The position numbers were made by a program, and so were the translations under genes. A DNA stretch of 40,000 nt from Myxacorys californica WJT36-NPBG1 (lineage in GTDB: Bacteria; Cyanobacteriota; Cyanobacteriia; Leptolyngbyales; Leptolyngbyaceae): positions 18,078-58,077 of the forward strand of contig JAHHHO010000021.1 in assembly GCA_019359315.1 (NCBI GenBank), in the 5' to 3' direction. Positions 12,362 through 30,366 of the stretch are shown here, piece by piece (position 1 is the first letter of the stretch; each line of letters begins with the position of its first letter). The notes beneath the pieces are model-generated. The model saw only the letters and a list, made by a program, of their open reading frames with translations, was not told the DNA's origin and ran no database searches.

Positions 12362-14582
12362 GCTTTAAATTTTTCTTACTATTGACTTGATCAGGCGTAG
12401 CCACCAAAATTAAGCCATTCTTGGCACGTGAATAAGCAACGTACAAAAGCCGAATAGTATCTTCTATGACAAGTAATTCTGGATCTCTTACATTTCTTGG
12501 GTATAATCCTTGTCTAAAATTTGCTAAATCTGTCTCAAGAATTTGTGCTGACCCAATTCTTCCACTATCTCCTAGCTGAGCAACAAGAACAAAGGGGAAT
12601 TCTAAACCCTTTGCTTGATGAATAGTCATTATCGGAAGATATCCCTGAGGAACAATTACATCCTCATCTTCATCGTCATCAATTCCTGTCTCAATAAGGT
12701 AACTTACAAACATATCATAGAAACGATAGAGAAATGTTGGATCTACATCAATTCCAGACTTATTTCTCCGTAAGCTATCTAAACTCATGCTGTGGTAGCC
12801 CTCAAAAAGACGAGTGACTTTAGATAATCTTAAATTCCTTGATGGGTCTTGACGCCACAAAGAGAAAGGCTCTCTTGAGAGAATCCGATAGATAATTTCT
12901 AGTAGATTAAGACCAATGAAAGTTTGCGTGCTTGCCGCGCATATTTTGGGTAATTCTACGTTACTACTGCATATGTAATCTTCAAGGAGGGCTGTTGGTA
13001 TTGTGGGATCATTCAAGACACTTCGAAGAGTATTTAACCAATCTTGAATAGGTTTAACCCATAATCGAGACTCACCTTTTTGATCCTTATAAGATGCAAA
13101 AGAATGTTTTTTATCAATAATTTCTACTAGTGCTGCAAGTAAGCATTGAACCTCCTCACTCTCCATAAATGACTTTGAGCGTGGATTATAAATAGGAATA
13201 TTGTTCTCTTTAAACGCTGTAATAAATGGACCTGCATTACCCGGCGAATCTTGAGTACTGCGTAGTAATAGAACACATTGACTTAAATCAGCAATAACAT
13301 TGTCAGCTACCAGGTGATCTCTAATTAACTGAACAACAGCCTCAGGCAAATCTTCTGCTTTCTTTCGAGTTAACCAGGTAACAGCAGGATAATTACCTTG
13401 AATAGAAGATGCAGGCTCTACTAAATCTTTGCCAGGAGCGCGAACTCCTGGAGCAGCCATTTCAGAAAAAGATGTTATGTAATTATTAAAAAAATCAACA
13501 ATTCTTGAGTGAGACCGATAGTTACGCTTCAGCTGGATTGGATAGGGTGTTTTGGCAAAAGTAGTTTGACAAGCCTTATCGAAATTAACCATGCAAGCAA
13601 CGTTAGCTCCACGGAAGCGATATAAAGCTTGATCATCATCACCAACGACAGTAATGTTATGAGGCTGTTTATGAGAAAGCGCAAGATAAATTCGCTCTTG
13701 AATAGGATTGGTATCTTGATACTCATCAACCAGAACATGCTGCAGTGGCACTTGATTCAAACCATCACCATCTAAAAAACGCTTTCCCCCAGATGAGGTA
13801 AGAAATTCCAGAAATCGAGCTTGCAGATGTGCAAAGTCGCAACGATAGTTATCCTGCAGGGCTTCAATGTATTGTTGATAAAACTTTACTAAAGTCGCCC
13901 AATGCCCTCCAGCCTGGAGCATCTTCGTCAAATCAATACAGTCATCAACAATATGGTTGAACAAGACAACGGCTGCTTTTACACGCTTCCACTTACTAGG
14001 TGAGAATTTGGCGTTCTGATGCCATTTAGGTACTGCGTGATGGAAGTATCTCCAAAAATCCAGATTCTTGTATTCTGAAATATCTGCAGTACGGTAAGTG
14101 AAAAGATCCTGCTCTACTTTGTCAAGTAAACGAACATTTTGATAGGGAGGATAACGATATTCCTGAAGAATATCATTGCAGAGGCTGTGAAGGGTTCCTA
14201 TTCTTATATCTGACAAATCTACATTTTTAAGGCTAGAATCAAAAGCCTGAAGAACACTTAGATAGCTTGACAAACGATCTTCTAGATTTTGTGCTGCGGG
14301 TTTAGTAAATGTAGTGAGTGCTATAGAACGAGGCGCTACACCGTTTACACAAAGTAGTTTTAAGGTTCGTGTAACTAAGACTTCACTTTTACCAGAACCT
14401 GGACCAGCAAGAAGCCATAAGGGTCCCCCGCTATACTCAACTGCCTCTTTCTGTTTCGAGTCTAAATCGTAGCCTCGAGCACTTTGTTGAGCAAGACATG
14501 TGTGAAAAGTAATTAAGTCTATCATTGAAATATGTAGCTTTTGCGACTGTTTTTTCTGAAGCGTTACGTTTGCAGGAAGCAA
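12303..14582 (-). CDS. UvrD/Rep/PcrA-type SF1 helicase (copy 1)
   Basis: 'LLAGPGSGKSEVL' (Walker A), 'VLVDEYQDTNPIQ', 'VVGDDDQALYRFRGA', 'RNYRSHSRIV', 'MTIHQAKGLEFPFV', 'LLYVAYSRAKNGLILV'. Confidence 0.85.
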   Translation of the reverse strand: MLPANVTLQKKQSQKLHISMIDLITFHTCLAQQSARGYDLDSKQKEAVEYSGGPLWLLAGPGSGKSEVLVTRTLKLLCVNGVAPRSIALTTFTKPAAQNLEDRLSSYLSVLQAFDSSLKNVDLSDIRIGTLHSLCNDILQEYRYPPYQNVRLLDKVEQDLFTYRTADISEYKNLDFWRYFHHAVPKWHQNAKFSPSKWKRVKAAVVLFNHIVDDCIDLTKMLQAGGHWATLVKFYQQYIEALQDNYRCDFAHLQARFLEFLTSSGGKRFLDGDGLNQVPLQHVLVDEYQDTNPIQERIYLALSHKQPHNITVVGDDDQALYRFRGANVACMVNFDKACQTTFAKTPYPIQLKRNYRSHSRIVDFFNNYITSFSEMAAPGVRAPGKDLVEPASSIQGNYPAVTWLTRKKAEDLPEAVVQLIRDHLVADNVIADLSQCVLLLRSTQDSPGNAGPFITAFKENNIPIYNPRSKSFMESEEVQCLLAALVEIIDKKHSFASYKDQKGESRLWVKPIQDWLNTLRSVLNDPTIPTALLEDYICSSNVELPKICAASTQTFIGLNLLEIIYRILSREPFSLWRQDPSRNLRLSKVTRLFEGYHSMSLDSLRRNKSGIDVDPTFLYRFYDMFVSYLIETGIDDDEDEDVIVPQGYLPIMTIHQAKGLEFPFVLVAQLGDSGRIGSAQILETDLANFRQGLYPRNVRDPELLVIEDTIRLLYVAYSRAKNGLILVATPDQVNSKKNLKRVPVPGRDHVEFRRNTVAI

Positions 14583-14979: not shown

Positions 14980-16074
14980 ATGGAGCTTGTACTCCCCGCT
15001 GTAGCAGTTCGACGCGGTCCCGAAGGGAATCAAATCAGTTACGTAGCGAGCTTTACATTTGGTGACATTGCTCGGTTACTAGATGATGGACGGCTGTACG
15101 TGCCGAACCAACCTGACCTACCTGACTTTGCTCAACGGAAACCGAATCCTGTTCGGATTAAAGCGATCGCCCAATACATCCTGGAAACCTACAGGGAAGG
15201 CACAACCTTCTTCCCTCCAATCTGCGTCAACGTACAACCACCGCCAACCTATCGAAACGGAAACGTCTACTTGCCTTATCACTCAGTAACGTTGCGCTTG
15301 ACTGACGGGCAACACCGTTGCTTTGGCATACGCCAAGCCATCCAGGACATTCAAACCCAAGATCTCATGAACCTTGGAATGCTCTCAAACCTGGAGTTGG
15401 GTGCTTTACTCTACTCTGGGCTACGTCTTGACTTGGAGCGTCAGGCATTCCGGGATCAAAACTTACTAGCACAAAGGCCAGGAACCTCTTTAGCCTATTT
15501 GTTCGACAAGCGATCGCCTAGTGTCCTAATTGCGAAGAGCTTAATGGAGCGAGTTGCTCAGTTTCAGGGCAACGTCGAAACCATTGAAAACGGGTTAGGT
15601 CAGCACAATCCCAAGCTAATGACCCTGTCTACATTAGTTATGGCAACACAGCATATGTTTCCAAACTTACGGTCAAAAAAGGATTTAGAAGAACGTACCG
15701 ACTGGGCTGTAGCATTCTGGATCGCTGCAGGAAGCAACTTCTTCAATGAACTCTGGGCACTAACAAGTGTGCAGGAGCGCAAACGTCAGCGTGAGCAGTC
15801 GGTAGCTGTGAGTGCTATCGTATTTCAGGCATTAGGCTTATTGGCACGGGATTTGTATCTGGAGGGAGTTTCAGGGGAAGATCTGCACAAGTGGTTAGTG
15901 AAACTAGGTGAGATAGACTGGCGACGCGAGAACAATTTCTGGTTAGAGCGAGGAGTGACGCAGGTAGGGGCACAGGGCAACCCAATTTTGCCTAACACGA
16001 GAACTACTATTGATGCTTGTCATCGTGTACTTCGTGAATTTGTAGGCATCATTCCACTTTCCTCCACTTGTTAG
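14980..16074 (+). CDS. dpdB: DGQHR-domain protein (DpdB/DndB-like, ParB/Srx-fold)
   Basis: Exact DGQHR signature in 'VTLRLTDGQHRCFGIRQAI'. At 364 aa it matches DpdB/DndB in size. The symbol is tentative. Confidence 0.7.
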   Translation: MELVLPAVAVRRGPEGNQISYVASFTFGDIARLLDDGRLYVPNQPDLPDFAQRKPNPVRIKAIAQYILETYREGTTFFPPICVNVQPPPTYRNGNVYLPYHSVTLRLTDGQHRCFGIRQAIQDIQTQDLMNLGMLSNLELGALLYSGLRLDLERQAFRDQNLLAQRPGTSLAYLFDKRSPSVLIAKSLMERVAQFQGNVETIENGLGQHNPKLMTLSTLVMATQHMFPNLRSKKDLEERTDWAVAFWIAAGSNFFNELWALTSVQERKRQREQSVAVSAIVFQALGLLARDLYLEGVSGEDLHKWLVKLGEIDWRRENNFWLERGVTQVGAQGNPILPNTRTTIDACHRVLREFVGIIPLSSTC

Positions 16075-16104: not shown

Positions 16105-18339
16105 TTGCTACTGGGATCTGTTATCTCACACCTGATAAAGGGAATTCTACTAGTAAAGTGTTTTGCTAGGAATATTGTGATGCCTGAAGCTACTGATGTT
16201 CGTAAACTTGCCAGAGCTTGCATTACAAGAATCTCAAAGACGCTTATAGCCGAGCGAAGGGAACGGATCCTACCAGAATTTAGGTTAGATAGTTTTCAAC
16301 AGCGCGTGGTTGATTCACAAGCCAGGTTCATGCGCGTAGTTGCACCTGCTGGCTCTGGCAAAACACGCACTCTAATTGCTAAAGCGATTAACGTTCTCGA
16401 TGCCAACGACAATTCTCGTGTTCTTTGTCTAACCTTCACAAATGCAGCCGCGAATGAGTTTCGAGAGCGGGCTAGTAAACTACATACCTCTTTGGCAAAT
16501 CGTTTACAAGTATCAACTTTGAATGCTTTTGGTTACGACACGCTTAAAGTTACAAATGAATCTTTAAAAGTTGTTTCCCCAAGCAACAAAATTATTGGAG
16601 TTGCTTACGGAGTAATAAAGAAACTCATGCCTGAAAGTTCTATTTGGGGGGGTGAGACTCAACCTCAGTTCTATGCTCCAATATTAGAACTTGCTGATAT
16701 GACGAAAAGCCTTGGCTTTGATCACCTAGCTGATAGGAGCGAGGCTCAGGAACAGTACAGTTTTGTAGAAGCACTCGATATGGTGCCACTTCTGCAAAAT
16801 CTGATGGCAGAAATTGGAATTGAAGATAGCCCCAAGACTGCATTCACTAGCACATGGTTTCCCTTTTGGAAGAAGCTAACTGAGAAGCTTTGGAAATCAA
16901 ATTTAATCACGCTTGATGATCAAAAATATTGGGCACTAAATAGGCTTGCAAATCACGGTGGCACACAACAATGGCTATGTGGCAAAAGATTTTCCCACAT
17001 TTTAGTTGATGAGTTCCAAGATATTAATATCCTAGATCTTTTTCTTATTTCGCAAATTGCCCTGGTTACAGAAGCTTCACTGATTATTGTAGGAGATGAC
17101 GATCAATGCATCTACGAATGGCGCGGTTGTACTTCGTTATTCATTCAGCGTCCGGATCTCTTTTTCGAGTCAGTCTTAGGAGACCAAGAATTTGAAACTG
17201 TGTTACTCAAACGAAACTATCGGTGTCCCCACAATATCGTAATTCACTCAAAGCATCTCATTAATACTAATCAAGATCGAATTGAAAAAGACACAGTACC
17301 TATGCGTGAGGATGATGCCGACATTCGTATTATTCCTCTGCCAGCAGCTTACATGACTATGAATGTTGTTGATGAACTTGCCGCTTTTTTAGCTGACAAA
17401 CACCCTCAACACACAGTAGCTATTGTCGGACGCAAGAAATGCCAACTCATACCTATACAAATTTTGTTAACTCGACGGGGTACAAAATTCGCGATCGATA
17501 CTGATCTAAACGTCTTTGGCGGCAAAGCTTTTCAAGATTTCCGAAAGTTTATGGAGTTTCCTAAAATATACACTCAAGCTAGACAAACCTCAAAAAATGT
17601 TGAAGATCTTTTGGCGTTACTAAATAGAATTAAGAAAACACCCGTAAGCAAACAGGAAAATCAAGAAATCCATAAATGGTTAAGCGAGAAGAAGCCTAAG
17701 ACACTTCAAGAAGCAGTAATAAAGTTTAGTGAATATCCTGGAAAGTTTAAGAGAGGATTTGTTCAACCAAAAGAAGTTACTTCTGATTTAATATTCTTTC
17801 TTGAAAGTACTTCTGTTGTGGCATCCTTGTACCGAGCTGGCGATGTGTTCAAGGGATTTCAGAAAGATTTTGTGAAATCAAAGGAAGATATTTTTTACTC
17901 TGATCCTCCGTTTAGTCATCTTGCTGATTTAGCTGTTAACTACGACAATGATTTTGATGCATTTTTAAGTGACATAGATCGTGCAATTGAGAGAGCTGCT
18001 GGTGCTGATCCTCGCGGCGCTAAAATCGAACTTATGACTGCTCTTCGAACTAAGGGTAGGGAATTCGACACAGTTATTGTTCTCGATGTTAATGATGGTA
18101 TTTGGCCTAATAAGAAGTCTCAAGAAGAAGGACGGCTAGAAGAAGAACGCCGCTTATTTTACGTTACTGTTACACGCACTAAGAATAATCTTTTACTTTT
18201 TGAGAGTGGTAGAGTTCAGGGACAACGTATGGCAGCTTCACCCTTTATCCAGGAAATGGCACTCCCCACTAGTGCTTGGCTGTCTGATCCTCAGTTAGAG
18301 AGACTTTCACATGAGCTTTTAGCACAGTTAAAGATATAA
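16105..18339 (+). CDS. UvrD/Rep-type SF1 helicase (copy 2)
   Basis: 'VVAPAGSGKTRTLIAK', 'ILVDEFQDINILD', 'IVGDDDQCIYEWRG', 'RNYRCPHNIV', 'MTALRTKGREFDTVIVL', 'RLFYVTVTRTKNNLLLF'. The likely real start is ATG at 16180 ('MPEATDV'). Confidence 0.85.
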   Translation: MLLGSVISHLIKGILLVKCFARNIVMPEATDVRKLARACITRISKTLIAERRERILPEFRLDSFQQRVVDSQARFMRVVAPAGSGKTRTLIAKAINVLDANDNSRVLCLTFTNAAANEFRERASKLHTSLANRLQVSTLNAFGYDTLKVTNESLKVVSPSNKIIGVAYGVIKKLMPESSIWGGETQPQFYAPILELADMTKSLGFDHLADRSEAQEQYSFVEALDMVPLLQNLMAEIGIEDSPKTAFTSTWFPFWKKLTEKLWKSNLITLDDQKYWALNRLANHGGTQQWLCGKRFSHILVDEFQDINILDLFLISQIALVTEASLIIVGDDDQCIYEWRGCTSLFIQRPDLFFESVLGDQEFETVLLKRNYRCPHNIVIHSKHLINTNQDRIEKDTVPMREDDADIRIIPLPAAYMTMNVVDELAAFLADKHPQHTVAIVGRKKCQLIPIQILLTRRGTKFAIDTDLNVFGGKAFQDFRKFMEFPKIYTQARQTSKNVEDLLALLNRIKKTPVSKQENQEIHKWLSEKKPKTLQEAVIKFSEYPGKFKRGFVQPKEVTSDLIFFLESTSVVASLYRAGDVFKGFQKDFVKSKEDIFYSDPPFSHLADLAVNYDNDFDAFLSDIDRAIERAAGADPRGAKIELMTALRTKGREFDTVIVLDVNDGIWPNKKSQEEGRLEEERRLFYVTVTRTKNNLLLFESGRVQGQRMAASPFIQEMALPTSAWLSDPQLERLSHELLAQLKI

Positions 18340-18391: not shown

Positions 18392-19309
18392 CTAACTAAT
18401 TGAAGAGCTAACGACCTCCTGAAGAGCATTTCGATGTCCAAATCTTTGGTAGTCGTAGCGGGCATCCCACCAAAGCCAGTTAGTTGAATCTGCCCAAACG
18501 TTATGCTTTTTAAGTACTTCAAGGCGAGTGAGGGCCAGTCCTCCCAGTACGAGGTCGGGACGGCTCCAAGTGAGGAGATCGTCAAGTTGCTCATTAGAAA
18601 GCCCAAATTTTAAGCCGGTTGGCATACTGGGATCTGACTTGAGCAGGCCACCAAGGGCAATGTATTGGTAGCCGATGTTGCGATATTCACTGATGAGCGA
18701 TGATAAAAAGCTTCGAGGGGAGTTGTAGTGAGGAGGCAGTGCATCTTTCTGAGGAATGGGTTGACGGTTTTGCCACTTATAGAGGGCATCACCCACCTGC
18801 ACTACTCCAATTAGCTTGAATTCTCTAGGTCTCTGAGAGTATTCCTGCCATGCCAGACGGGCTAAGTGTAAAGATAGTAAAGGTTCACCAAATACATCAG
18901 GAGCAAGAACATAATCAGGGGAGACTTCTATGCACTGAGCAAAAAAGTTCTTAATGTTCTGCATCAATTTTTCTCTGCCAGCTAAAGCTTCTCCATGCAC
19001 CCAACGCCCATTTTTGTATTCTGCGTAATTTTCCACATACCAGGTAGAGCCTCTCTTCTCAAAAACATCACTGTCTAAGAAAAAGGGCTTCCCTGTGTCG
19101 CGGACACTTCTAAGAAAGTTTTTTGAACAAGATGAAAGAGGAGCCAGAATCCCAAATTCACCATCTATCTCCTTAGCTTTTCTTAATAAACCAAACCAAT
19201 CCATAGCTAAAACAGGAAAAAATTCCCTTTCATCGACAAGACAGACTAGTATGGCGTGCCACAATATGTCAGGTAGCGAAATGTACCATAGCAAGAGAAA
19301 ATTACACAT
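18392..19309 (-). CDS. Divergent TGT/DpdA-like transglycosylase paralogue (no C-terminal zinc Cys cluster)
   Basis: Its motifs are colinear with the two other TGT-like genes. These are 'FFLDSDVF' (vs DSGAH / DCGAF), 'LIGVVQVGD' (vs WGVVQGWD / MGVAQGWN) and 'YIALGGL' (vs YLAIAG / YVALGGL). The last is 'NVWADSTNW' (vs TSFDSSTW / TSFDSASP). An alternative start is ATG at 19204 ('MDWFGLL'). Confidence 0.55.
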   Translation of the reverse strand: MCNFLLLWYISLPDILWHAILVCLVDEREFFPVLAMDWFGLLRKAKEIDGEFGILAPLSSCSKNFLRSVRDTGKPFFLDSDVFEKRGSTWYVENYAEYKNGRWVHGEALAGREKLMQNIKNFFAQCIEVSPDYVLAPDVFGEPLLSLHLARLAWQEYSQRPREFKLIGVVQVGDALYKWQNRQPIPQKDALPPHYNSPRSFLSSLISEYRNIGYQYIALGGLLKSDPSMPTGLKFGLSNEQLDDLLTWSRPDLVLGGLALTRLEVLKKHNVWADSTNWLWWDARYDYQRFGHRNALQEVVSSSIS

Positions 19310-19327
19310 CGTTCCTGTTATACATAT

Positions 19328-20509
19328 ATGAGGGAAGAGGATGTTCTTCTAAAAACACATAGTTTTCTTAAGGCGCAAGGATTAAACGGGCAGTCTATAG
19401 TTCGTCTTTATACTGATGCGCATCATACCTTGTTGAAGAATCAAAAACTTCAACCGTTCCAAAGATTCACATTAAACATGGGAGACTTTGTACTTCATCC
19501 AGATTTAGTGGGTCAATTAGATGATGGTGAGTCGATATTTGCTCTAGAGGCTAAAGGGGCTGTCGGTACTAGTGAGTTAGTAAGGGGGCTAGCACAAGCT
19601 GAGCTATATCAGTCAGGATTCCACTATTCATTTTTAGCTACAGTAGTAAATGGTTTAGGAGAAAACTTACTGCAATTCGCTCGCCGTAAAAATATAGGAG
19701 TTATTGCAGTGAGCGAGGATGTAAAAATTTTAAATTTTCCAGAAGCACAGATGCCGTTTCGGAAAATCTTCCAAAGTATCGCACGGCAGATGGAAACGGT
19801 TATTCAGATTACAGAACAGCAAACTTTTCAGTATAATGCTCCCACTCATTATATGGTCTGGTCAGTAATATTAGAGCCACATATTGAATATGAAATAAGT
19901 GGAATTTCTAAGCTTCTAGAAAATTACCCTATACCCGAAGGCAAAAATAAAGATGGTTGGAAAGCGACCTTAGCAGGAGCAAGGAAATTAGGAATCGTCA
20001 ATCGTTCGGGAAATTTAATTAAGTTAACACCTATTGGTGAAGCTATTAAAGATATTCTAAGAACAAATTTAGATGAATGGATAGATGTACATGAAAAGGC
20101 TGGAGGTAAGAGAAGAAAGTACTATCTATTTGAGTATAAACCTCAAGCGGCTGCCTGTCTTCGCTTATTGCTTCTTCAAGAGCCAATACTCAATCTAGTA
20201 ATAGAGGGGCTGAAAAAATTTCCAAACTTTTCAACTACCTTTTCTGAGCTGGCAGTAGTCTGTGATGGGCTAGATCATGCTAGAGCACCTATTTTCTTCC
20301 TTAAACCAGAGGCTCTGGAATCATTAATCGATAGTAATGGACATATTGATTGGGATAAAACTGAGCCTAGAAATTATCGGGGTAGGATGTTCTTTCAATA
20401 CAAAAGAATTCTCCAACATGCTGGAGTCATAAAGCCTGATGTTTTAGGTGGTAGTAGCGTCAAAGAATATGAGAAAAATATAAGCAGAGACATTTGGACA
20501 TTAATTTGA
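19328..20509 (+). CDS. Protein with an N-terminal PD-(D/E)XK nuclease-like motif and a possible C-terminal winged helix
   Basis: 'FVLHPDLVGQLDDGESIFALEAKG' gives a PD...ExK arrangement. 'ARKLGIVNRSGNLIKLTPIGEAI' is wHTH-like. Its 3' end overlaps the next TGT-like gene by 16 nt. Confidence 0.45.
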   Translation: MREEDVLLKTHSFLKAQGLNGQSIVRLYTDAHHTLLKNQKLQPFQRFTLNMGDFVLHPDLVGQLDDGESIFALEAKGAVGTSELVRGLAQAELYQSGFHYSFLATVVNGLGENLLQFARRKNIGVIAVSEDVKILNFPEAQMPFRKIFQSIARQMETVIQITEQQTFQYNAPTHYMVWSVILEPHIEYEISGISKLLENYPIPEGKNKDGWKATLAGARKLGIVNRSGNLIKLTPIGEAIKDILRTNLDEWIDVHEKAGGKRRKYYLFEYKPQAAACLRLLLLQEPILNLVIEGLKKFPNFSTTFSELAVVCDGLDHARAPIFFLKPEALESLIDSNGHIDWDKTEPRNYRGRMFFQYKRILQHAGVIKPDVLGGSSVKEYEKNISRDIWTLI

Positions 20510-21498
20510 AGCCTTTATATTTTCTTCCATGGTGGCCATCTGACTATATTTGGAAGGAGTGGAACACTTCATTTGATATGGGTAGGATGACCGGATGGAC
20601 GAAGACATATTTGTGGGAAGTACTACCTAATCTAATTGATGGAATTGTTGTGTCTCGAATGGCTGTTTCTCTGAGACAAATCAAGTTACTTCGGCAAAAA
20701 CTTCGCTTTACCGGAGTAATTTTAGGAGACTCTGGAGCGCATTCTTATCGAAATTATGAGCACCCCCCATTTTCATGTGAAGATGTCTTAGAGTTTTATG
20801 CTCAGGGAGATTTTACCTATGGTTTAACCGTTGATATGGTTGCTTCTCCTTGGGTGCGTCCAGGAGGTTTGTCAGACGACGAATTGCAGAGTAGATTAGC
20901 GCTAACCATCAATAATGCTGAACGCTGTTTAGAGCTACATGAAAGGTATAATTATCCATTTACTTTATGGGGGGTTGTACAAGGTTGGGATGTCACAAGC
21001 TATCGATCGTGTGCTAAAGCTTTGCTCAAACTTGGGTTTACTTATTTGGCGATCGCGGGTCAACGGAAGCTCTCTTTAATCAGGGATGCAATAGATGCTG
21101 TTTCAGAAGAAGCACATCAACTTGGCAAGAAGATAAACATTCATGTATTAGGAACAGGAAATCCTAAAATTCTTGAGTTCTATATCCAAAAAGGCATTAC
21201 TTCATTTGATTCATCAACCTGGTTACGTAAAGCTTGGCTGAGTGAAAAGCATAATTACTTTCTTGTAACCGGAAAACATTATGATGCTTATCGAGCAACA
21301 AGAGTTGGATTAGGGGAATTTGATGTAAACAAGTTGAAATGGGATATAGAAATCAACTGCTCTTGCTATTTCTGTCGGAGTCTAGGACAACAAATTCTAT
21401 TATTTAGAGGACATGAAAGAAATACTCGAAGAGGGTTCCATAATATCTGCCAGTATGTTCAATTGCTCAAAGCACACCGGAAAGATGCTTTAGTCTAG
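20494..21498 (+). CDS. TGT/DpdA-like transglycosylase paralogue (short form, with Zn Cys cluster)
   Basis: 'LYFLPWW' (cf. 'YYIPEWDD' of the fusion protein), 'VILGDSGAHSY', 'WGVVQGWD', 'YLAIAGQ', 'GITSFDSSTWLRKAW', and the C-terminal 'CSCYFCRS...RGHERNTRRGFHN' (CxCxxC...H). Confidence 0.65.
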   Translation: MDINLKPLYFLPWWPSDYIWKEWNTSFDMGRMTGWTKTYLWEVLPNLIDGIVVSRMAVSLRQIKLLRQKLRFTGVILGDSGAHSYRNYEHPPFSCEDVLEFYAQGDFTYGLTVDMVASPWVRPGGLSDDELQSRLALTINNAERCLELHERYNYPFTLWGVVQGWDVTSYRSCAKALLKLGFTYLAIAGQRKLSLIRDAIDAVSEEAHQLGKKINIHVLGTGNPKILEFYIQKGITSFDSSTWLRKAWLSEKHNYFLVTGKHYDAYRATRVGLGEFDVNKLKWDIEINCSCYFCRSLGQQILLFRGHERNTRRGFHNICQYVQLLKAHRKDALV

Positions 21499-23554
21499 AC
21501 AGTTGTTCAGAACCTTGGTCAAGGTTCTCTTCTAGAAGAGCTTTGAACCGCTTATAGAAAACATAGGTATTGTGAAAACCTCGCCTACGGTTGCGATCGT
21601 TATTTCTAAAAATGACTGTTTCAATGCCCAATTCTTGACATATTAGGCACTTACATGAATTCCAAGGCTTTTCTTTAAGTATTTCTAGATAGAAAGGTTC
21701 AAGATCTATAGACTTCTTTGAATCAGTTTTGTTTTCTTGCTCTTCGATCAGCTTGCTGTAGGTCAGTACTGTTTTTAGTGTGGTTTCCAAATCCAGTGTT
21801 CCTACATCAAATTGTCTTAAAGCGTCCAGTGCTTCTTGTTCATATCTCTTAAAAGTTTCTAAATCGACAGAACCACTTTCAAGAGCACGCTTTATTTTTA
21901 ATCCTCGCTCTGTTGGGGGGACTCTGATAGCCATGAAAGTTTTGCTCGATAGAGTGTGATAGTTTTTTGTACCAGATAACCATGCTTGTCTCAGTGGACT
22001 TGCTGAGTCAAAACTCGTAACTCCCAAATGCCGAAATACTGGAATTGCCTCAATCCGAGCAACCCCAAACAAATGCAACCGCACATTTGGTTTGAGATGG
22101 GGAGAAATTGCCTTCAGGATTGGTACAATCTCCTTTGTTTGTGCACGAGCTAATCCACCTAGTGCCACATAGTCATATCCCATGCCAATTACTTCTTTCA
22201 CAGCATTGGCATAGGACTCTGGGTTCCACCCTTGAGCCACACCCATTGGAGTAAACGTATATCCTAATTCTCGATGCTTCTTGATAAAGTCTTCAGCATT
22301 CTTCAGCGTAATTTCGTACCGTTTTTCCCGTTCGCCTGGTTGAGCAAAGGGACCCACAATCAGATGGTCAATACTCACTCCATAGTTAAATCCCAAATTT
22401 TCGTAATACTCTAAAATTTCATCGGTATTGTATGGGGGCACTTCTTCCTTGATGTAACCAAATGCTCCACAATCTCCCATGATTTGCCCCGGAAACCGGA
22501 TGAAATTGTGGATTCCACCTGCTGCTTCCACCCGTGCCCGTTTTGTTTTGCTCTCATCAACCACGACTTTAGAGACTAAAATTCCGTCGTAGTTCGGTGA
22601 TGGATAAATCTCGTGAGCATAGATGTCATTATAGGGATCTCGACCTGGCGTGAGAGTATCGGTAAGAAAGCCATAGTTTGGATCTACGCGATCGTCCCAC
22701 TCTGGAATGTAATATTGCATTCCCAAGTGAACATTAGGTGCTGGCGGGCAGGGAGGAATGGCTAAATAGTCCTCCGTTTGGGGCTTAATAACTTGTTTAG
22801 AAGCCTTTTTAGCCGAAGGGATGGACAACCCCAATGTCAACTCTAACTGGGTCTCCTGCTGGTCGATCACTTTCTGAAAGACAGTTGGCTCCTCATAAAC
22901 CGTTTTTAATAATTCAGCGTCCTTACAGACTGCTTCTGCAAATCGTTTGAACAGAAATCCCTTTAACCCAACCAACCCATAGCGATAACGTTTTGCATCA
23001 GTATTGGACAACGGCAATATAAAAGTCTTCGCTGCTAAAGTCCTGATAAATCGAGTACTACTGTTAGATGCCAAAAATACTAACGTCTGGTCTGGTCTGG
23101 TTTCGACAGGCAGTGTCAGCGATCGTAGATAGTTCTCTCCTAGCAGTAAGAAAATGAGGTTATAAGGGGTGATCGCTTTCTCAAACGTACTATGCAAGTC
23201 GAGGGATCGTGCCCAATCATCTACTTCATTTACCCTCATGTTATTGAAGGTGACCTCATAAGGCGCGATCGCCCAGTTCTCCTCAATTAGCCCATACCCT
23301 GCTGACAAAATCGCGACATCAACTGCATCTTGCCCTAAAGCCTGGCGCAACAGTTGCACACCCTCCATCAGTCGAAGGTGCTGCATCCCTGTGTACATTT
23401 TTCCAGCGGTACAAAGAAACTCAGCCAATTCTGCTTCCCGTCGCTGAAGATGTTCAGGATCTTTGAAGTCTGCTAGGGTCAGTTGATTCTCAGGCTTAGC
23501 ACATTTTTCTCCAGTGCAGGATGTAACAACAAGAACACTAGGGTGGGGCATCAA
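21467..23554 (-). CDS. dpdA: DUF6884-like N-terminal domain fused to a DpdA-type DNA-guanine transglycosylase
   Basis: 695 aa. The N-terminus has '[11 protein letters not shown]...MYTGMQH...[22 protein letters not shown]', a DUF6884-like pattern. The C-terminal ~420 aa have '[16 protein letters not shown]', '[10 protein letters not shown]', 'MGVAQGWN', 'YVALGGLA', '[15 protein letters not shown]' and 'CKCLICQE...[13 protein letters not shown]'. Its start overlaps the queC stop by 4 nt (23551-23554). Confidence 0.75.
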
Positions 23555-23825
23555 AGCTCCTTACAAATAGCGACCAAATGACTAGGAACCGGAATGGAGG
23601 GTTCTAATTCCTGGTTATATAGCTCCCGTCCGATCGGCGTTGCTAAATCCGGTCTGCCTGCTTCGATCAGGGCACGATCGCGAATCCAGCAAGAGTCGCA
23701 CAACCCACAGGGTTCATCTTCTCCTTGATAACAAGACCAGGTGAGTTGAATGGGTAAACCCAATTATAATACCCGTTGCACAATGTCTACTTTGGAATCC
23801 ATCACCAGTGGAGCAACGAGCTTAG

Positions 23826-23973
23826 CCCTCATTTGTCACTCTCGCTAAAGCGAATTCTGAAACCTAGGCTTGGGGCGAGTTTCCTATTTTGAGGGCTCGA
23901 AAATGACAAAAGAGCAAAACGGAGATGCAGCAATGCTTTCAGCTTTTGCTCCTGCCAGAGTGACAAATGAGGG
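23826..23973. mobile_element. 148-bp MITE with perfect 17-bp terminal inverted repeats, inserted in queC
   Basis: TIRs are CCCTCATTTGTCACTCT (23826-23842) and AGAGTGACAAATGAGGG (23957-23973). They are flanked by the direct repeat TTAG (23822-23825 and 23974-23977), which fits the YTAR target duplication of IS5-group elements. No ORF inside. Confidence 0.8.
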
Positions 23974-24219
23974 TTAGAAGCATTTCCTTCTAGTCCAGCT
24001 TTGGAAGAGAGAGTGGCAAGGTGCTGAACAGCGTCCAGATACTCTGGTCGGCAGTCAGGATAGCCGGAGTAGTCCACTGCATTGATCCCCAGATAAATTG
24101 CTTCGGCTCCTTTGGCTTCTGCTAGGGAGAGAGCGATCGCCAGAAAGACTGTATTCCGTCCTGGTACATAGGTAATGGAAATGACACCAGGTTTAGCACC
24201 GTTAGTAGGCACGTCTATA

Positions 24220-24380
24220 AAACCCATTTGGGATCTTTTCCCGTGATACTTGGCTTTGAAGGAAGCCGTTACTCTGCGATCAATGGTAGAGCCTTCCTAG
24301 CAAAACCGTTTTCTGCCAAAAAATGAAGAAAACCAGCTAGCTGCAAGGCTTGTGATTTCAGGATTAGATCCCAAATGGGT
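24220..24380. mobile_element. ~161-bp MITE (different family) inserted in queC
   Basis: Inverted repeat CTATAAAACCCATTTGGGATCT (24215-24236) vs AGATCCCAAATGGGTTCTATAG (24366-24387), 21/22. The direct repeat TCTATA at 24214-24219 and 24381-24386 is the likely target duplication; its exact boundary is ambiguous because it overlaps the TIR. Removing 167 nt restores the queC frame. Confidence 0.7.
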
Positions 24381-24632
24381 TCTATAGCCTGGTCAGTGAG
24401 AGCAGAACCACCCCACTGCGCCAAATTCACATCTACCACAAAATGTTCCTTGATCCCCAAATGCTCAGCCACCCGCTTAGCAGCAATGAGTTCGCGATCG
24501 TGCCTTTGTCCGTAGTGGAGCGACAGGGCAATCAATTCGTAACCATCGGTGATCGCTTGAGCAGCAGAGGTTGATGAATCCAGACCACCAGACAATAAAA
24601 CAATGGCTTTGGAAGCACTCATAGGTTCACTC

Positions 24633-25272
24633 TTATCGAATATTGGTGAATTTGTAGGTTTGTAAACTGATCCGCCATTCTGGATGGCTGAGAACGTACT
24701 CAAAGATGGGTGAGTAGCTATCAGATGTACCCCATTCTGGTTGGAGAAGCCTGACTGCATCGGTTGGAATTTTGGTCGCGTAATCCTCCGCCCATACCAA
24801 GTCAGACTGGTTAGCAATTACAACCTTTAGTTCACTTACCTGTGGATAAATGCTTTCGTGCGGAGGCTCGGACTGTAGGGCAGAAGGTAATCCAGTCGAA
24901 GCTGCCACTGAAGGGGTGTGCTCCAGAGGTTCCTAGATGCACTCGCAGTCCTGCGACTCTTAACCCCCCATTGCTGAGGGAGGAAAGGTCATGCATCAGG
25001 GGTTCGCCACCCGTAATGACAACGATCGCTAGATTGACCGCTTTAGCTTCTGCAATTAGGTCGGCAGTAGGACGTTGAGGATGGCGACGAGCATTCCACG
25101 AATGCTTGGTGTCGCAGTAGGGGCAGCCTACGTCACATCCGGCTAGTCGAATAAAAAAGGCGTTCGTGCCTGTCCAGGCTCCCTCACTCTGAACCGAGTG
25201 GAAGGTTTCCACCACTGGCAGGACTGTCAAAGCTGTTTTAGAGGTTGAGGGAATGGGAATCAGGCTTGTCAT
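24633..25272 (-). pseudogene. queE: 7-carboxy-7-deazaguanine synthase (radical SAM) gene carrying a frameshift
   Basis: ORF 24832-25272 has 'FIRLAGCDVGCPYCDTKHSW', 'VVITGGEP' and 'GSFDWITFCPT'. ORF 24633-24908, in another frame, continues with '[19 protein letters not shown]...LLQPEWGTS...[13 protein letters not shown]'. Together they make a normal-length QueE. The frames differ by one extra nucleotide at about 24870-24890. Confidence 0.8.
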
Positions 25273-25283
25273 AACGATCGCTC

Positions 25284-25673
25284 CTAGTCGTCCTCGTACT
25301 CAACCCAAGAATTGGGCGTTTCGGACACAGCAACCTTCAACTTCACATCCGACAGCAATTGCTTCTTCGTCTTGTCGTAAATATATTGAGCAATCATCTC
25401 GGCAGTGGTTCCATAGCCTTCCGGCAGAACTTCGTTTAGAACCGAATGGTCGAGCCCTCCTTTGAGTAGGTCTTGCTTTGCCCAACGGAGCGTGCGGAAA
25501 TCAGCAACCATGACAGGATGAGGACAGTACTCGGAGGCATAGAGCTTATTAGAGGTTGCCTCAATTCGAACCTTATAGGTATGCCCATGCATCCGCCCAC
25601 ACGGACCGTTGTAGTCCCGGATGTAGTGAGCAGCATCAAAAGTAAACTCAGTGGTCAGTTTCCAGGTTGGCAT
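25284..25673 (-). CDS. queD: 6-carboxy-5,6,7,8-tetrahydropterin synthase
   Basis: 129 aa. 'FTFDAAHYI...GPCGRMHGHTYKVRIE' and 'LDHSVLNEV' are characteristic QueD/PTPS motifs. The ORF is intact. Confidence 0.85.
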   Translation of the reverse strand: MPTWKLTTEFTFDAAHYIRDYNGPCGRMHGHTYKVRIEATSNKLYASEYCPHPVMVADFRTLRWAKQDLLKGGLDHSVLNEVLPEGYGTTAEMIAQYIYDKTKKQLLSDVKLKVAVSETPNSWVEYEDD

Positions 25674-25812: not shown

Positions 25813-27762
25813 CTAGTTTGGTTCCCCAACAGATAGAGAATCACTGTACATCTCGTAAATCTGAATTTCGATCTCGCTTGCCACGTTCTTCGAATAGTCA
25901 GGTTTTAACCCTGCTAACCTCACTACCTTCCACGGTTCAACTCGTTCACCCCGTTGATTGAGCACTTTTGCTGCCCACCTCACCCGTCGAATCTGGTAAT
26001 CCTCAAGGCTCTCTGTCACTGAATTCAAATAAGCCTGCATCATAGGCATCTGGTCAAGATGTTGTTCGATCAGTGCCAGTTGACCGATCACCTTCGCTAC
26101 TCTGCTTACGGTAATTCGGATCGGTTTCTCTTCTGCCAGTAATCCCTGTACGGCTTCCTTCACCTGAGCTAGAATTTGCTCGTCCCGTTGCTGCCAGTCT
26201 ACTCGGTTGTTGATGTAAACAGACTTCTGGACTGGGGGTGAATGCTGGTTGAGCCATTCGCGATCGTACCGATAGAGCCAAGAATAGGTGCTGGGAGCGA
26301 ATCGGCGGAGGGCTGTTTTGGAAGCGTGGGGGTACTGGGTCTGAAGGATGCTCCACGTATTCCGGTGTTGGGTTCTTAGGCTATCAGACTCACCAGATTG
26401 AGCACAGAGAAGTTCTATGGAATCTGATTCCTGCATTTTGGTCTGAGATCTCCACTTTGGAGAAAGTTCGAACCGTTGGACATAGCGATTGACCGTTCTG
26501 GGATCAACCTGAAGCTGTTTGGCAGTTTCTCGCAATCCCAGTTGTTCAACTTCTACCAGTTGCCTCAATTTCTGCTGCCATACCGGACCCACCGCTTTGA
26601 TTTTACCAATGCGACAGGCATCCGCTTCGGTCTGGTCGGGTCCAGTCCGACAGTAGATAAAGCCACAGGAGCAGGAAAAGGTTCCCACAGGCTTTTTTGT
26701 GTCGCCGCATAAGCTAATTGACAGATCCGTAACAACAGATTTTAGATAATGCTCTGCGGCAGCATTCAAGCACAACCACGGTCCTACCCCAAAGGGCTTG
26801 TAACCGTGATCGCCTCCTAACAGTTCTGCAACGGAGAGTCCCAAAAATCGAATCATCAACAGATGCCGAATAGGATGAAAGACTTTTCGGTGCTTCCGGC
26901 CAATGCTGAACAGCCAGTTTTGATCATCCTGGCCATGAACGGTTGAATCTAACGCCTGCAAAATTTCCTGGTTATAGGCAGATAAAAACTGTTTGATCAA
27001 CGAGCCTTGATGCACTCGTCCTGTCGCGGTTGCCAATCCCCGTTCAATCAGCACAGACACGTATTGCTTGCGAAACCAGTTCAAGTCCTGGGAAGGTAAC
27101 TCATTCTCTAGTAAAAAATAGGCAACCTGAGCCAAACACTTGAGGACGTTTAAGGCATGCTGGCCGAATATTTTTTCAGGTGGATGGATGCAACAGTTAT
27201 CAATCCCGGCAGCAATATATTCATGCCGGTTCATGCCTTGAAGCGGGACTGAACTATCCTGAAGAACTTCGGCATGATGAGGGCAAACTAGAGCTCCTGG
27301 GGCTTGATGGATGCGATGCCAATACAACTCGCCGTACTTCGCTTGGTCGTCGCTGCTGCACATCGGGCAAAATCGGAAGTACTTGGGGACACGGATCGAA
27401 CTAGCTCGAATCCCGACCTGGTTATGAATACCTCCTCCTTTCTCAGAGCGCATTGCCTCAAGAATTTGTTGCGATCGATCCTGCGGAAGAAAGGGAGCAT
27501 AGAAGGGATACAACGTATGGTTCTGAATCAATTTCTCGACGGTCATCTGCGAAATTAATTCCAGCTTTGCAGCTAAAGACTCTAAGTTACAGGGAAGGTC
27601 AGCAGTGGCGATCACATTCCTGGAATCAAATAACTCCTGCATTGCGAGTTTTGGACTGGTATGACCACTGCGCAGGTGATAGCGAGCCAGGATGCTGTAG
27701 AGCAGTTCGTCTGGGTACGGCTTGGGAAAGAAGCTCAACTGTGAGTACATCTGTAAAGTCAA
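25813..27762 (-). CDS. tnsD: Tn7 TnsD-like target-selector protein (TniQ family), full length
   Basis: Colinear with Tn7 TnsD. It has 'FFPKPYPDELLYSILARY', 'HTLYPFYAPF', the CCCH finger 'FRFCPMCSS...YWHRIHQAPGALVCPHH' and 'RKHRKVFHPIRH'. It also has 'YSWLYRYDREWL', 'RVDWQQRDEQI' and 'LEDYQIRRVRWAA'. Confidence 0.85.
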   Translation of the reverse strand: MTLQMYSQLSFFPKPYPDELLYSILARYHLRSGHTSPKLAMQELFDSRNVIATADLPCNLESLAAKLELISQMTVEKLIQNHTLYPFYAPFLPQDRSQQILEAMRSEKGGGIHNQVGIRASSIRVPKYFRFCPMCSSDDQAKYGELYWHRIHQAPGALVCPHHAEVLQDSSVPLQGMNRHEYIAAGIDNCCIHPPEKIFGQHALNVLKCLAQVAYFLLENELPSQDLNWFRKQYVSVLIERGLATATGRVHQGSLIKQFLSAYNQEILQALDSTVHGQDDQNWLFSIGRKHRKVFHPIRHLLMIRFLGLSVAELLGGDHGYKPFGVGPWLCLNAAAEHYLKSVVTDLSISLCGDTKKPVGTFSCSCGFIYCRTGPDQTEADACRIGKIKAVGPVWQQKLRQLVEVEQLGLRETAKQLQVDPRTVNRYVQRFELSPKWRSQTKMQESDSIELLCAQSGESDSLRTQHRNTWSILQTQYPHASKTALRRFAPSTYSWLYRYDREWLNQHSPPVQKSVYINNRVDWQQRDEQILAQVKEAVQGLLAEEKPIRITVSRVAKVIGQLALIEQHLDQMPMMQAYLNSVTESLEDYQIRRVRWAAKVLNQRGERVEPWKVVRLAGLKPDYSKNVASEIEIQIYEMYSDSLSVGEPN

Positions 27763-29462: not shown

Positions 29463-30366
29463 TAAGAGGACGTTTGAGAAGTAGCAGATTATACTCATTT
29501 GCTAGAATGGTAAGGATGAATCGAAAACCTTATGATACTGATGTCTCTGATGCTGAATGGATAATCCTTGAACCACTCATTCCATCATCTCAACCCGGTG
29601 GACGTCCACGTTTTAGAGACAGGCGCGAAATTGTAAATGCAGTTTTCTATATTCAGCGTTCTGGCTGTGCTTGGCGCTTACTGCCACATGAGTTTCCCCC
29701 CTGGCAAACCGTGTATTACTACTTTCGCACTTGGCGCATTGCGGGTGTGTGGAAAACTCTACTCAAAACCATTCGCGAGCAGGTGTGTCAAGCCATGGGA
29801 CGAGCCGCAACACCTAGTGCTGGAATCATCAATGCCCAATCGGTCGAAACGACGAAAGCTGGCGGAACAGAACGCGGTTATGACGGGGGTAAAAAAGTCA
29901 AAGGGCGCAAGCGTCACCTGTTGGTCGATACCCAAAGATTGGTCCTGAAGGTCAAGGTACTTGCAGCTAACACAGCAGATCAAGAAGGTGCCAAACAACT
30001 GCTCAGTGGCATTGGGGCGCAGTTTCCTCGATTGCGATATCTGTGGGTCGATGGTGGCACCACGTTTGTCAGTTGGGTCAAAGAGCAGTTGGGTTGGATG
30101 GTGCAGCGCGTGCAACATCCGAATGCTGGGTCCCATCGTCGCATTGTTGGTCCAGGTGTGGAACCTGCGCCGATTGACCGCAGTTTCAAAGTCATTGAGC
30201 GCAGATGGGTGGTGGAGCGAACGTATGGCTGACTTGGGCGATATCGACGACTGGGCAAAGACTACGAATATCTGCCTGAAACGTCGGAAGCGTTCATCTA
30301 CACTACCTCTCTCCGTACACTCCTACGGCGGCTGGCATAATCTGCTACTTCTCAAACGTCCTCTTA
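29463..30366 (+). mobile_element. IS5-family insertion sequence (~0.9 kb) with perfect 30-bp terminal inverted repeats
   Basis: TAAGAGGACGTTTGAGAAGTAGCAGATTAT (29463-29492) is the exact reverse complement of 30337-30366. The target duplication is ambiguous (possibly TA). One transposase gene lies inside. Confidence 0.85.
29516..30340 (+). pseudogene. IS5-family (DUF4096 + DDE) transposase with an in-frame TGA replacing a conserved Trp
   Basis: 'MNRKPYDTDVSDAEWIILEPLIP...GRPR...REIVNAVFYIQRSGCAWRLLPHEFPPWQTVYYYF' is a typical IS5 N-terminus. The ORF stops at TGA 30230-30232 within 'VVERTYG*LGRYRRLGKDYEYLPETSEAFIY...LRRLA', where family members have 'ER.FGWLGRYRRL'. The same frame stays open to TAA at 30338-30340. 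Confidence 0.75.

Follow-up and report, generated by a model that had tools for sequence, protein, structure and literature searches.

The cyanobacterium Myxacorys californica WJT36-NPBG1 carries a composite Dpd-type 7-deazaguanine DNA modification–restriction island with three genes of the tRNA-guanine transglycosylase (TGT) fold. The island lies within a 40,000-nucleotide (nt) stretch of contig JAHHHO010000021.1 (positions 18,078 to 58,077), which was analysed at its full length and is hereafter called the window. The three genes encode proteins of 305, 334 and 695 amino acids (aa); our open reading frame (ORF) listing places them with the coordinates and lengths given in an earlier note on this DNA, which had been made from the sequence without database searches (Table 1). 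The 695-aa protein is a fusion of a DpdC-type domain with DpdA, the 334-aa protein is a short DpdA, and the 305-aa protein is, judging from profile comparisons and a predicted fold, a real, very divergent DpdA-like lineage that lacks the Zn site. We lean, if only slightly, towards an overall reading in which the fusion would write the modification, the 305-aa protein would serve as a second base-exchange subunit, the 334-aa protein and an adjoining 393-aa protein would form an accessory nuclease module, and an arm with DpdJ and DpdK would restrict. Gene calls in the island combined the ORF listing with Pfam, NCBIfam and PADLOC scans of the window.

Three TGT-fold lineages in one island

The DpdA part of the 695-aa protein is full length: residues 279-672 score 485 bits against the NCBIfam bDpdA model NF041059 (cutoff 200) and align with the structure of the Salmonella DNA-guanine transglycosylase (Protein Data Bank (PDB) entry 7UI4) with an E value of 2.8e-94. 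In Salmonella DpdA, D95 acts as the general acid/base and D256 as the nucleophile, and both the Zn site and Ins8 (alphaC-alphaF), a protruding helical domain specific to DpdA, are conserved in the family (PMC10164549). The residues D361, D396, Q441 and D516 of the 695-aa protein correspond to D95, D130, H181 and D256 of the Salmonella enzyme, the Zn ligands are C634, C636, C639 and H661, and the alignment to 7UI4 shows the Ins8 helical domain to be present as well.

The N-terminal domain of this protein (approximately residues 1-270), which the earlier note had described as DUF6884-like, does belong with Pfam DUF6884 (PF21818; 37.7 bits over residues 70-157, cutoff 30). It carries both motifs described for that family in PMC11701544, CxxxK at residues 13-17 and LSAxxG at residues 83-88, and a genome-mining paper has placed DpdC in the DUF6884 family. 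PADLOC DpdC models match the 695-aa protein over residues ~6-111 only (E 6.5e-8), and because this similarity covers only about the first 110 residues, we regard the domain as DpdC-type but divergent. From its sequence, the fusion together with DpdB most likely modifies DNA.

The 334-aa protein matches Pfam TGT with an E value of 1.1e-14 and reaches 185 bits against the NCBIfam DpdA model, just under the cutoff of 200. D79, D114, Q163 and D239, together with the Zn ligands C289/C291/C294/H316, are invariant in its family (alignment A3, 26 sequences). In a pairwise alignment with the 695-aa protein, it lacks ~68 aa between the barrel and the Zn motif, a segment that we assign to the helical part of Ins8. 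Its family is small, comprising ~30 clusters at 54-95% identity, and is followed by a gap to DpdAs of 409-443 aa at 28-37% identity.

The earlier note had called the three genes paralogues. They are indeed homologous, but they do not represent a local expansion; they stem from three distinct lineages that diverged long ago. Identity between the 334- and 695-aa proteins is 29% over 285 aa (BLASTP E 4e-41), and the nearest other bacterial DpdAs to the 334-aa protein reach 33-37% identity over 57-72% of its length. The 334-aa protein is thus closer to other bacterial DpdAs than to its 695-aa neighbour, which argues that it is no local duplicate. A recent tandem duplication is rejected on the same low identity and because each gene has its own family and distribution.

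The 305-aa protein has no match in Pfam, NCBIfam, PADLOC or PHROGs, its family profile matches no PDB sequence even at E 10, and BLASTP against the 334- and 695-aa proteins stays at noise level. It has at least 149 clusters of homologues; every named one is cyanobacterial, and all are labelled hypothetical. The link to DpdA became convincing only once an exhaustive profile search across 1.84 billion representatives recovered a bridging lineage, here called family B, in addition to 8 clusters of the 305-aa family itself with E values up to 1e-30. Profile alignment with hhalign joins the 305-aa family to distant family B at 99.8% (E 6e-29) and family B to a combined profile of DpdA and short DpdA at 99.4% (E 1e-21); the direct alignment of the 305-aa family with that combined profile gives 92.6% (E 4.5e-7). 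Among the retrieved loci, the hidden Markov model (HMM) of family B matches 305-aa homologues at E ~1e-20 as well as DpdA at E 1e-11 to 1e-16, and the best and sole PDB match of the family B profile below E 0.1 is Salmonella DpdA, 7UI4, at E 8e-8.

Residues D79, D138, Q171 and D274 of the 305-aa protein align opposite DpdA D95, D130, H181 and D256, and these active-site equivalents are invariant across 40 homologues with 53-73% identity (D54, D113, Q146 and D249 in alignment A2). The AlphaFold2 (AF2) model, with a pLDDT of 85.8, is a TIM barrel whose top PDB match in Foldseek is the TGT subunit QTRT1 (E 2e-5), with other TIM barrels close behind. The protein has neither a Zn motif nor a cluster of invariant Cys residues, and the whole Ins8 insertion is missing.

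BLASTP for the 334- and 695-aa proteins, and the profile bridge with the AF2 fold for the 305-aa protein, thus bear out the earlier placement of all three in the TGT/DpdA superfamily. The catalytic Asp motifs that had been read from the sequence fall opposite D95 and D256 in each of them (D361/D516, D79/D239 and D79/D274 in the 695-, 334- and 305-aa proteins, respectively), and the motif positions agree with a Zn motif in the two longer proteins and none in the 305-aa protein. The proposed set of shared motifs is found in collinear order, but its first consensus, D(S/C)(G/D)xF, misfits the 334-aa protein, which reads DSGAH with His at the fifth position.

Neither extra protein is classed here as bDpdA: the 334-aa protein falls below the cutoff and lacks Ins8 in part, and the 305-aa protein has no match and lacks it wholly. 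The literature distinguishes bDpdA and DpdA1-4. In tblastn searches against phages the 305-aa protein gave no match and the 334-aa protein a single weak one, and neither belongs to the known phage subfamilies DpdA1 and DpdA2; no Pfam match to DUF6610 (DpdA4) was found for the extra TGT-like proteins. The idea that the 305-aa protein is DpdD or another named Dpd protein was rejected, as no PADLOC Dpd model matches it.

The 305-aa ORF begins with a 25-residue hydrophobic N-terminal extension that is common to its closest relatives only; a typical homologue has ~274 aa and starts ~8 residues ahead of the conserved FLPV strand. Its start codon and that of the divergently oriented 393-aa gene are 18 bp apart, and the promoters of both genes must therefore lie within coding sequence. 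One protein, P0168 (320 aa), joins the C-terminal half of DpdA to 305-aa-family sequence exactly at the FIDSGVF motif; this chimera is either the product of a deletion between adjoining genes or an assembly artefact.

Family B and phage DpdA3, related TGT-like barrels

Family B (proteins P0173-P0188) has a barrel of ~230 aa with motifs collinear with those of the 305-aa family. Both families keep the four active-site positions and have no Zn site. They share only ~26% identity, and family B lacks the beta-hairpin and loop insertions of the 305-aa family, is not cyanobacterial and, unlike that family, is partnered by HerA, NurA and SIR2-ORC-like proteins. Of 16 members examined, three carry a C-terminal DUF6884 domain and two give weak Pfam TGT matches.

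The genomic context of family B was examined in a metagenome scan of 80 loci (L056-L135). In 79 of these no other TGT-like gene is present, and 32 of the 86 TGT-like ORFs in the loci include a C-terminal DUF6884 in the same ORF. A HerA-like ATPase is found in 42 of the 80 loci (the 620-aa neighbour of family B is such an ATPase) and NurA-like proteins in ~40; a SIR2-ORC/Cdc6-like protein and DpdJ-like helicases are other recurrent neighbours, and queC, queD and queE lie nearby in 5 loci. This context supports, but does not prove, the notion that a DpdA-like barrel without a Zn site can serve as the active transglycosylase of a system. A report from 2026 describes TGT homologues in systems built around HerA, and family B may be the TGT part of the BREX-related systems centred on HerA/FtsK in PMC12839542.

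A further relative is DpdA3, a short TGT-like barrel of ~260 aa that is distantly homologous to TGT/DpdA and whose founding member is encoded by Cellulophaga phage phiST (CGPG_00065; PMC10516641); three DpdA3 sequences have no CxCxxC motif. Family B aligns with phage DpdA3 at 97% (E 1e-10), and the AF2 model of the 305-aa protein matches the phiST protein in a viral structure library (rank 4, E 3e-3). In hhalign the 305-aa family shows no significant direct profile link to DpdA3, so only family B connects to it. The two also differ in setting, as DpdA3 is phage-encoded and tied to complete replacement of guanine, whereas the 305-aa family is found on cyanobacterial chromosomes and invariably in Dpd islands. 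Taken together, the 305-aa protein, the 334-aa protein, family B and DpdA3 suggest, at the level of sequence, that neither the Zn site nor Ins8 is required for a DpdA-type active site.

Organization of cyanobacterial Dpd loci

A scan of one genome per species yielded 40 cyanobacterial loci with a homologue of the 305-aa protein, and 44 loci were classified in all, with their ORFs compared against the window proteins and family HMMs. DpdA and the 305-aa homologue occur together in 34 of the 44. DpdA is fused to DUF6884 in nearly all of those loci; the exceptions with separate genes are L002/L009, L014 and L044. In ~30 loci the 305-aa homologue directly follows dpdC::dpdA in the same orientation, with -11 to +100 nt between the DpdA stop and its own start. 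DpdB usually comes next, in convergent orientation, and is followed by UvrD plus PD-(D/E)XK genes and/or DpdJ, DpdK and TPR genes. Because they are found across loci, the DpdC fusion and the pairing of DpdA with the 305-aa protein are ordinary features of cyanobacterial Dpd islands rather than peculiarities of the window. In cyanobacterial Dpd operons, the 305-aa family seems to represent a core gene.

Eight loci have a second architecture (L006, L010, L013, L016, L027, L032, L034 and L036), in which DpdE, DpdF, DpdG and DpdH come after DpdC::DpdA and the 305-aa homologue; in some of them a small ORF of ~122 aa precedes DpdE. In four other loci (L012, L020, L028 and L039), the 305-aa homologue stands beside DpdB with no DpdA or DUF6884 gene within 10 kb. 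These four islands also carry restriction-type genes (DpdJ, DpdK, TPR or DpdD), and the one in L020 ends at an integrase.

Two loci show rearranged modules. L015 has two modules of DpdC::DpdA and the 305-aa homologue inverted on one contig (277-7027), with one DpdA copy broken. L001 encodes a reverse-order fusion of 471 aa (7291-8703) with a TGT-like N-terminal part and a C-terminal DUF6884 domain, adjoining a broken homologue of the 393-aa gene and an intact homologue of the 305-aa gene. This reverse fusion means that DpdA- and DpdC-type domains have been joined in both orders.

Proposed mechanism and the role of the 305-aa protein

In Salmonella, DpdA replaces guanine in DNA by preQ0 while DpdB hydrolyses ATP, and DpdC makes dADG from dPreQ0 (PMC10164549). 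For the window, we propose that DpdA and the DpdB ATPase would exchange guanine for preQ0 in host DNA, and that the fused DUF6884 domain would hydrate preQ0 to its amido form (dADG), an activity that is known only for Salmonella DpdC, the domain here being divergent. The 305-aa protein would be a catalytically competent second base-exchange subunit of the modification arm, working alongside DpdA and/or DpdB and taking, for example, a second site, the opposite strand or another substrate. The 334-aa and 393-aa proteins would make up an accessory module in which a nuclease is coupled to a base-flipping pocket of the DpdA type, either as a reader–effector of modification status or as a small modification–restriction pair of its own. 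The DpdJ, DpdK, TPR and UvrD/PD-(D/E)XK genes would supply the restriction arm.

Four lines of evidence point to a catalytic role for the 305-aa protein: its invariant active site, its operon place after dpdA, the islands in which it stands with DpdB but no nearby DpdA, and the sister families that act alone. On these sequence-level grounds it is probably a second catalytic partner.

A different role is conceivable, namely that of a non-modifying structural or regulatory partner of DpdA that helps to bind or open DNA, resembling QTRT2 or standing in for DpdB. Eukaryotic TGT consists of two homologous TGT-fold proteins that cooperate, QTRT1 and QTRT2, and QTRT2 has lost its catalytic residues and kept the Zn site. 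The 305-aa family is the opposite, with catalytic residues kept and the Zn site lost, and its substrate is presumably DNA. The loss of the Zn site and Ins8 would suit a scaffold, as would the tight operon linkage with short or negative gaps, the eight second-architecture loci in which DpdC::DpdA and the 305-aa homologue have no DpdB within 10 kb, and the QTRT1/QTRT2 precedent, which is noted in PMC10164549. The four active-site positions, invariant in the 40 homologues and kept in family B, are unexpected for a pure scaffold, and some islands have the 305-aa homologue and DpdB with no DpdA nearby. We consider such a non-catalytic role unlikely.

Several observations weigh against the catalytic-partner proposal and the overall scheme around it. 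The direct similarity between the 305-aa family and DpdA is weak (92.6% in hhalign at best, and 27% with shallow alignments), and Foldseek puts TGT only marginally ahead of other TIM barrels for the 305-aa model. The eight loci without DpdB imply that the 305-aa protein can at times do without a DpdB gene nearby, and that it might replace DpdB rather than be an enzyme. The islands without DpdA may draw on a DpdA gene at another place in the genome. The 393-aa family is also found with no TGT neighbour, beside stand-alone DUF6884 genes or in other defence contexts. The queC and queE genes of the window are pseudogenes, and the island relies on host preQ0 supply or may be decaying. Finally, we infer all functional steps of the 305-, 334- and 393-aa proteins from their sequences and contexts.

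The 393-aa/334-aa cassette

The 393-aa gene shares its last 16 nt with the start of the 334-aa gene, which argues that the two form one co-transcribed, translationally coupled cassette. The cassette is inserted, in reversed orientation, between dpdA and the 305-aa gene, an operon that is intact in ~30 other species, and it is rare. The two genes overlap in the window, L003, L004 and L055, their homologues adjoin in L054, and broken remnants of the 393-aa gene persist in L001. All three of the TGT-like lineages are found together only in the window and in L003, a near-identical island.

The 393-aa protein has no match to a curated family in Pfam, NCBIfam or PADLOC; it is 100% identical to a protein from a metagenome-assembled genome of M. 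californica WJT36-NPBG1, a filamentous cyanobacterium. Its own family comprises 75 clusters, chiefly from cyanobacteria, with single members in Acidobacteriota and Planctomycetota. Residues P58, D59, E74 and K76, which make up a PD...(D/E)xK pattern, are invariant in 32 homologues, and the AF2 model (pLDDT 93.7) shows a putative PD-(D/E)XK nuclease-like N-terminal domain followed by winged-helix domains. Foldseek matches of the model are weak (E 6e-4 to ~0.5) but consistent with a restriction-endonuclease-like fold and winged helices, and comprise PaqCI, SfsA, AF1548, the nuclease domains of Card1/Can2, and IclR-type winged helix–turn–helix (wHTH) domains. The 334-aa and 393-aa proteins together probably serve as an accessory module linked to a nuclease.

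Comparison of the window with L003 reveals a mosaic. The 393-aa gene (19328-20509 in the window, 8808-10001 in L003) has just 58-70% nt identity between the two islands, whereas the flanking 305-aa, 334-aa and DpdA sequences have 90-98%. The first ~360 nt of the 695-aa gene, at the start of the DUF6884 domain, are likewise divergent (56-74%). The pattern of the 393-aa gene suggests cassette exchange or diversifying selection on a specificity or effector gene.

Outside the window and L003, the cassette occurs in loci of a different order. L004, L054 and L055 have preQ0 genes, DpdC::DpdA, a NurA-like protein, HerA, a ~611-aa protein, the 393-aa and 334-aa homologues, UvrD and PD-(D/E)XK, and DpdB and the 305-aa family are absent from all three. 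The 334-aa family is coupled to a nuclease-like protein throughout. Homologues of the 334-aa protein are always in loci that also hold DpdC::DpdA; L055 is cut upstream and hence uninformative on this co-occurrence.

These contexts bear on two other explanations of the short DpdA. One is that one or both of the extra TGT-fold proteins, more likely the 334-aa protein than the 305-aa protein, act as readers in the restriction arm, flipping the base into a DpdA-type pocket, telling guanine from preQ0 or ADG, and licensing an adjacent nuclease (the 393-aa protein or UvrD/PD-(D/E)XK) on unmodified DNA. Its homologues in L004, L054 and L055 do lie inside a HerA/393/334/UvrD/PD-(D/E)XK operon, far from the DpdC::DpdA at the operon head. 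A reader would also fit the overlap of the 334-aa and 393-aa genes, the divergence hot spot in the 393-aa gene, and the lack in the 334-aa protein of the Ins8 helical domain, which is prominent in the DpdA–DNA model of PMC10164549. The invariant nucleophile and general-acid Asp residues of the 334-aa family would be superfluous for a pure reader, and the 393-aa protein also occurs in places where it has no TGT neighbour. We know of no example of a TGT-fold reader, which counts further against this explanation, and we judge it somewhat unlikely.

The other explanation is that the cassette is a self-contained miniature restriction–modification system, in which the 334-aa protein would deposit a 7-deazaguanine at sites that would otherwise be cleaved by the 393-aa protein, independently of DpdA, DpdB and the 305-aa protein. 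Adjoining, overlapping gene pairs are typical of restriction–modification cassettes; the catalytic residues of both proteins are intact, the pair looks inserted into an otherwise standard operon, and the nuclease gene shows the mosaic divergence. Independence sits poorly with the constant company of DpdC::DpdA described above for the 334-aa homologues. The 393-aa clusters, moreover, outnumber the 334-aa clusters (75 versus ~30), and the 393-aa gene pairs elsewhere with DUF6884 alone or with nothing. This explanation strikes us as quite improbable.

A further proposal divides the labour among the three barrels. The Zn-containing DpdA would write, and the 305-aa barrel and/or the nuclease-coupled short DpdA would read by base flipping, or excise bases, which would provide the self/non-self step of restriction; we put it forward tentatively and think it unlikely to be correct. 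The reading that we prefer keeps the 305-aa protein as a catalytic partner in modification and the 334-aa/393-aa pair as an accessory module.

Gene content and state of the island

The Dpd components in the window are DpdA, DpdB, the DpdC domain, DpdJ and DpdK (Table 1). DpdD-I are absent from the window in the PADLOC and Pfam scans, and UvrD, PD-(D/E)XK and TPR genes are in their place; DpdE-H or DpdD are present in related cyanobacterial loci. The DpdJ, DpdK and TPR genes constitute a putative restriction arm, and the same DpdJ–PLD–TPR trio recurs in L020, L025, L030, L037 and L038. The pair of UvrD and PD-(D/E)XK genes likewise recurs 3′ of DpdB or of 334-aa homologues, in L004, L018, L022, L024, L029, L031, L041, L054 and L055. 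In L003, two different ORFs take the position of the second UvrD helicase (16105-18339).

Table 1. Genes of the Dpd island in the window, with the evidence for each call and the motifs of the three TGT-fold proteins.
Feature	Position	Strand	Evidence	Motifs (residues)
TPR protein	3427-5634	-	Pfam TPR	
DpdK-like PLD nuclease	5631-6182	-	PADLOC DpdK E 1e-23	
DpdJ-like helicase	6154-11142	-	PADLOC DpdJ E 5e-160	
PD-(D/E)XK nuclease	11276-12361	-	Pfam	
UvrD-family helicase	12303-14582	-	Pfam	
DpdB (DndB/DGQHR family, ParB-like ATPase partner of DpdA)	14980-16074	+	Pfam DndB E 6e-74, NCBIfam DGQHR domain	
Second UvrD-family helicase	16105-18339	+	Pfam UvrD-helicase E 1.8e-40	
305-aa Zn-less DpdA-like barrel	18392-19309	-	Profile bridge via family B, AF2 fold	LDSDVF 78-83, APDV 136-139, GVVQVG 168-173, YIALGG 216-221, WADST 272-276
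393-aa PD-(D/E)XK-like + winged-helix protein	19328-20509	+	Motif conservation, weak Foldseek matches	
334-aa short DpdA	20494-21498	+	Pfam TGT, sub-cutoff NCBIfam DpdA, BLASTP to 695-aa protein	GDSGAH 78-83, TVDMV 112-116, GVVQGW 160-165, YLAIAG 184-189, FDSST 238-242, CSCYFC 289-294, then H316
695-aa DpdC::DpdA fusion	21467-23554	-	NCBIfam DpdA, Pfam DUF6884, PDB 7UI4	SCTGEK 12-17, LSAGYG 83-88, GDCGAF 360-365, SIDHL 394-398, GVAQGW 438-443, YVALGG 462-467, FDSAS 515-519, CKCLIC 634-639, then GFHN 659-662
queC pseudogene	23587-24622	-	tblastn with intact L003 QueC	
queE pseudogene	24636-25275	-	tblastn with intact L003 QueE	
queD, intact	25284-25673	-	Pfam/NCBIfam	
Orphan Tn7-like TnsD	25813-27762	-	Family scan	

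The queC remnant is spread over three frames with one in-frame stop and a gap of ~125 nt, and queE is interrupted by a single frameshift; both genes are uninterrupted in the related islands L003, L001 and L005. Because of these pseudogenes, the supply of preQ0 would have to come from host genes elsewhere in the genome. A TnsD/TniQ-type gene adjoins queD, with no recognisable TnsA, TnsB or TnsC gene upstream, and an IS4/5 transposase (29474-30232) and an ISL3 transposase (1176-2837) lie close to the island. The island may once have been cargo of a Tn7-like element that has since degraded.

The queC and queE pseudogenes, the adjoining orphan TnsD and the insertion sequences close by could also be taken to mean that the island is eroding and that the additional TGT-like genes, as decaying or redundant copies, no longer have a function. 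All three TGT-like ORFs are intact, the active sites are invariant in both extra families (40 sequences for the 305-aa family, 26 for the 334-aa family), and synteny is kept in ~30 species. Given this conservation of the extra families, we regard decay as very improbable.

Three other genes in the window are unrelated to these findings. They encode a toxin-like 1280-aa protein with a bacterial EndoU nuclease domain (33185-37027), an SLH/beta-helix surface protein (30450-32297) and an IrrE-like M78 peptidase (11-706).

Relation to known Dpd systems and implications

In the Dpd system of Salmonella Montevideo, DpdA, DpdB and DpdC carry out modification and DpdD-K restriction (PMC10164549). The DpdA of the window is orthologous to the Salmonella enzyme, with the catalytic Asp pair and a Zn site of the form CxCx2Cx21-22H, and the window resembles that system further in having DpdB, a DpdC-type DUF6884 domain, DpdJ- and DpdK-like genes, and adjoining queC, queD and queE. 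It differs in that DpdC is fused to the N terminus of DpdA, H181 is replaced by Gln, and two TGT-fold proteins and a PD-(D/E)XK–wHTH protein are added. The window also lacks DpdD-I, with UvrD/PD-(D/E)XK and TPR genes instead, and its queC and queE are pseudogenes.

The earlier note took a single DpdA to be the rule in described Dpd clusters. This is fair for characterised systems, but a mining study, which found one cyanobacterial Dpd island, notes that many dpd genes are multi-copy. The literature that we searched describes neither the 305-aa family nor the short DpdA family, nor does it describe cyanobacterial Dpd islands with several TGT genes, and both extra families are missed by current defence-system annotation tools.

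To our knowledge, Dpd is the largest known restriction–modification system, has been worked on in one enterobacterial model, which has a single DpdA, and still lacks an explanation of how it discriminates modified from unmodified DNA. The presence of two uncharacterised DpdA-like lineages inside Dpd islands indicates that Dpd is more varied than the single-enzyme model. These lineages offer candidates for enzymes with new sequence or substrate specificity, for heteromeric transglycosylases, or for the missing reader of 7-deazaguanine. If the tentative division of labour between a writing DpdA and reading or excising barrels were true, it would provide the first case of a TGT-fold protein that serves immunity as a reader or DNA glycosylase, a role that is undescribed for Dpd.

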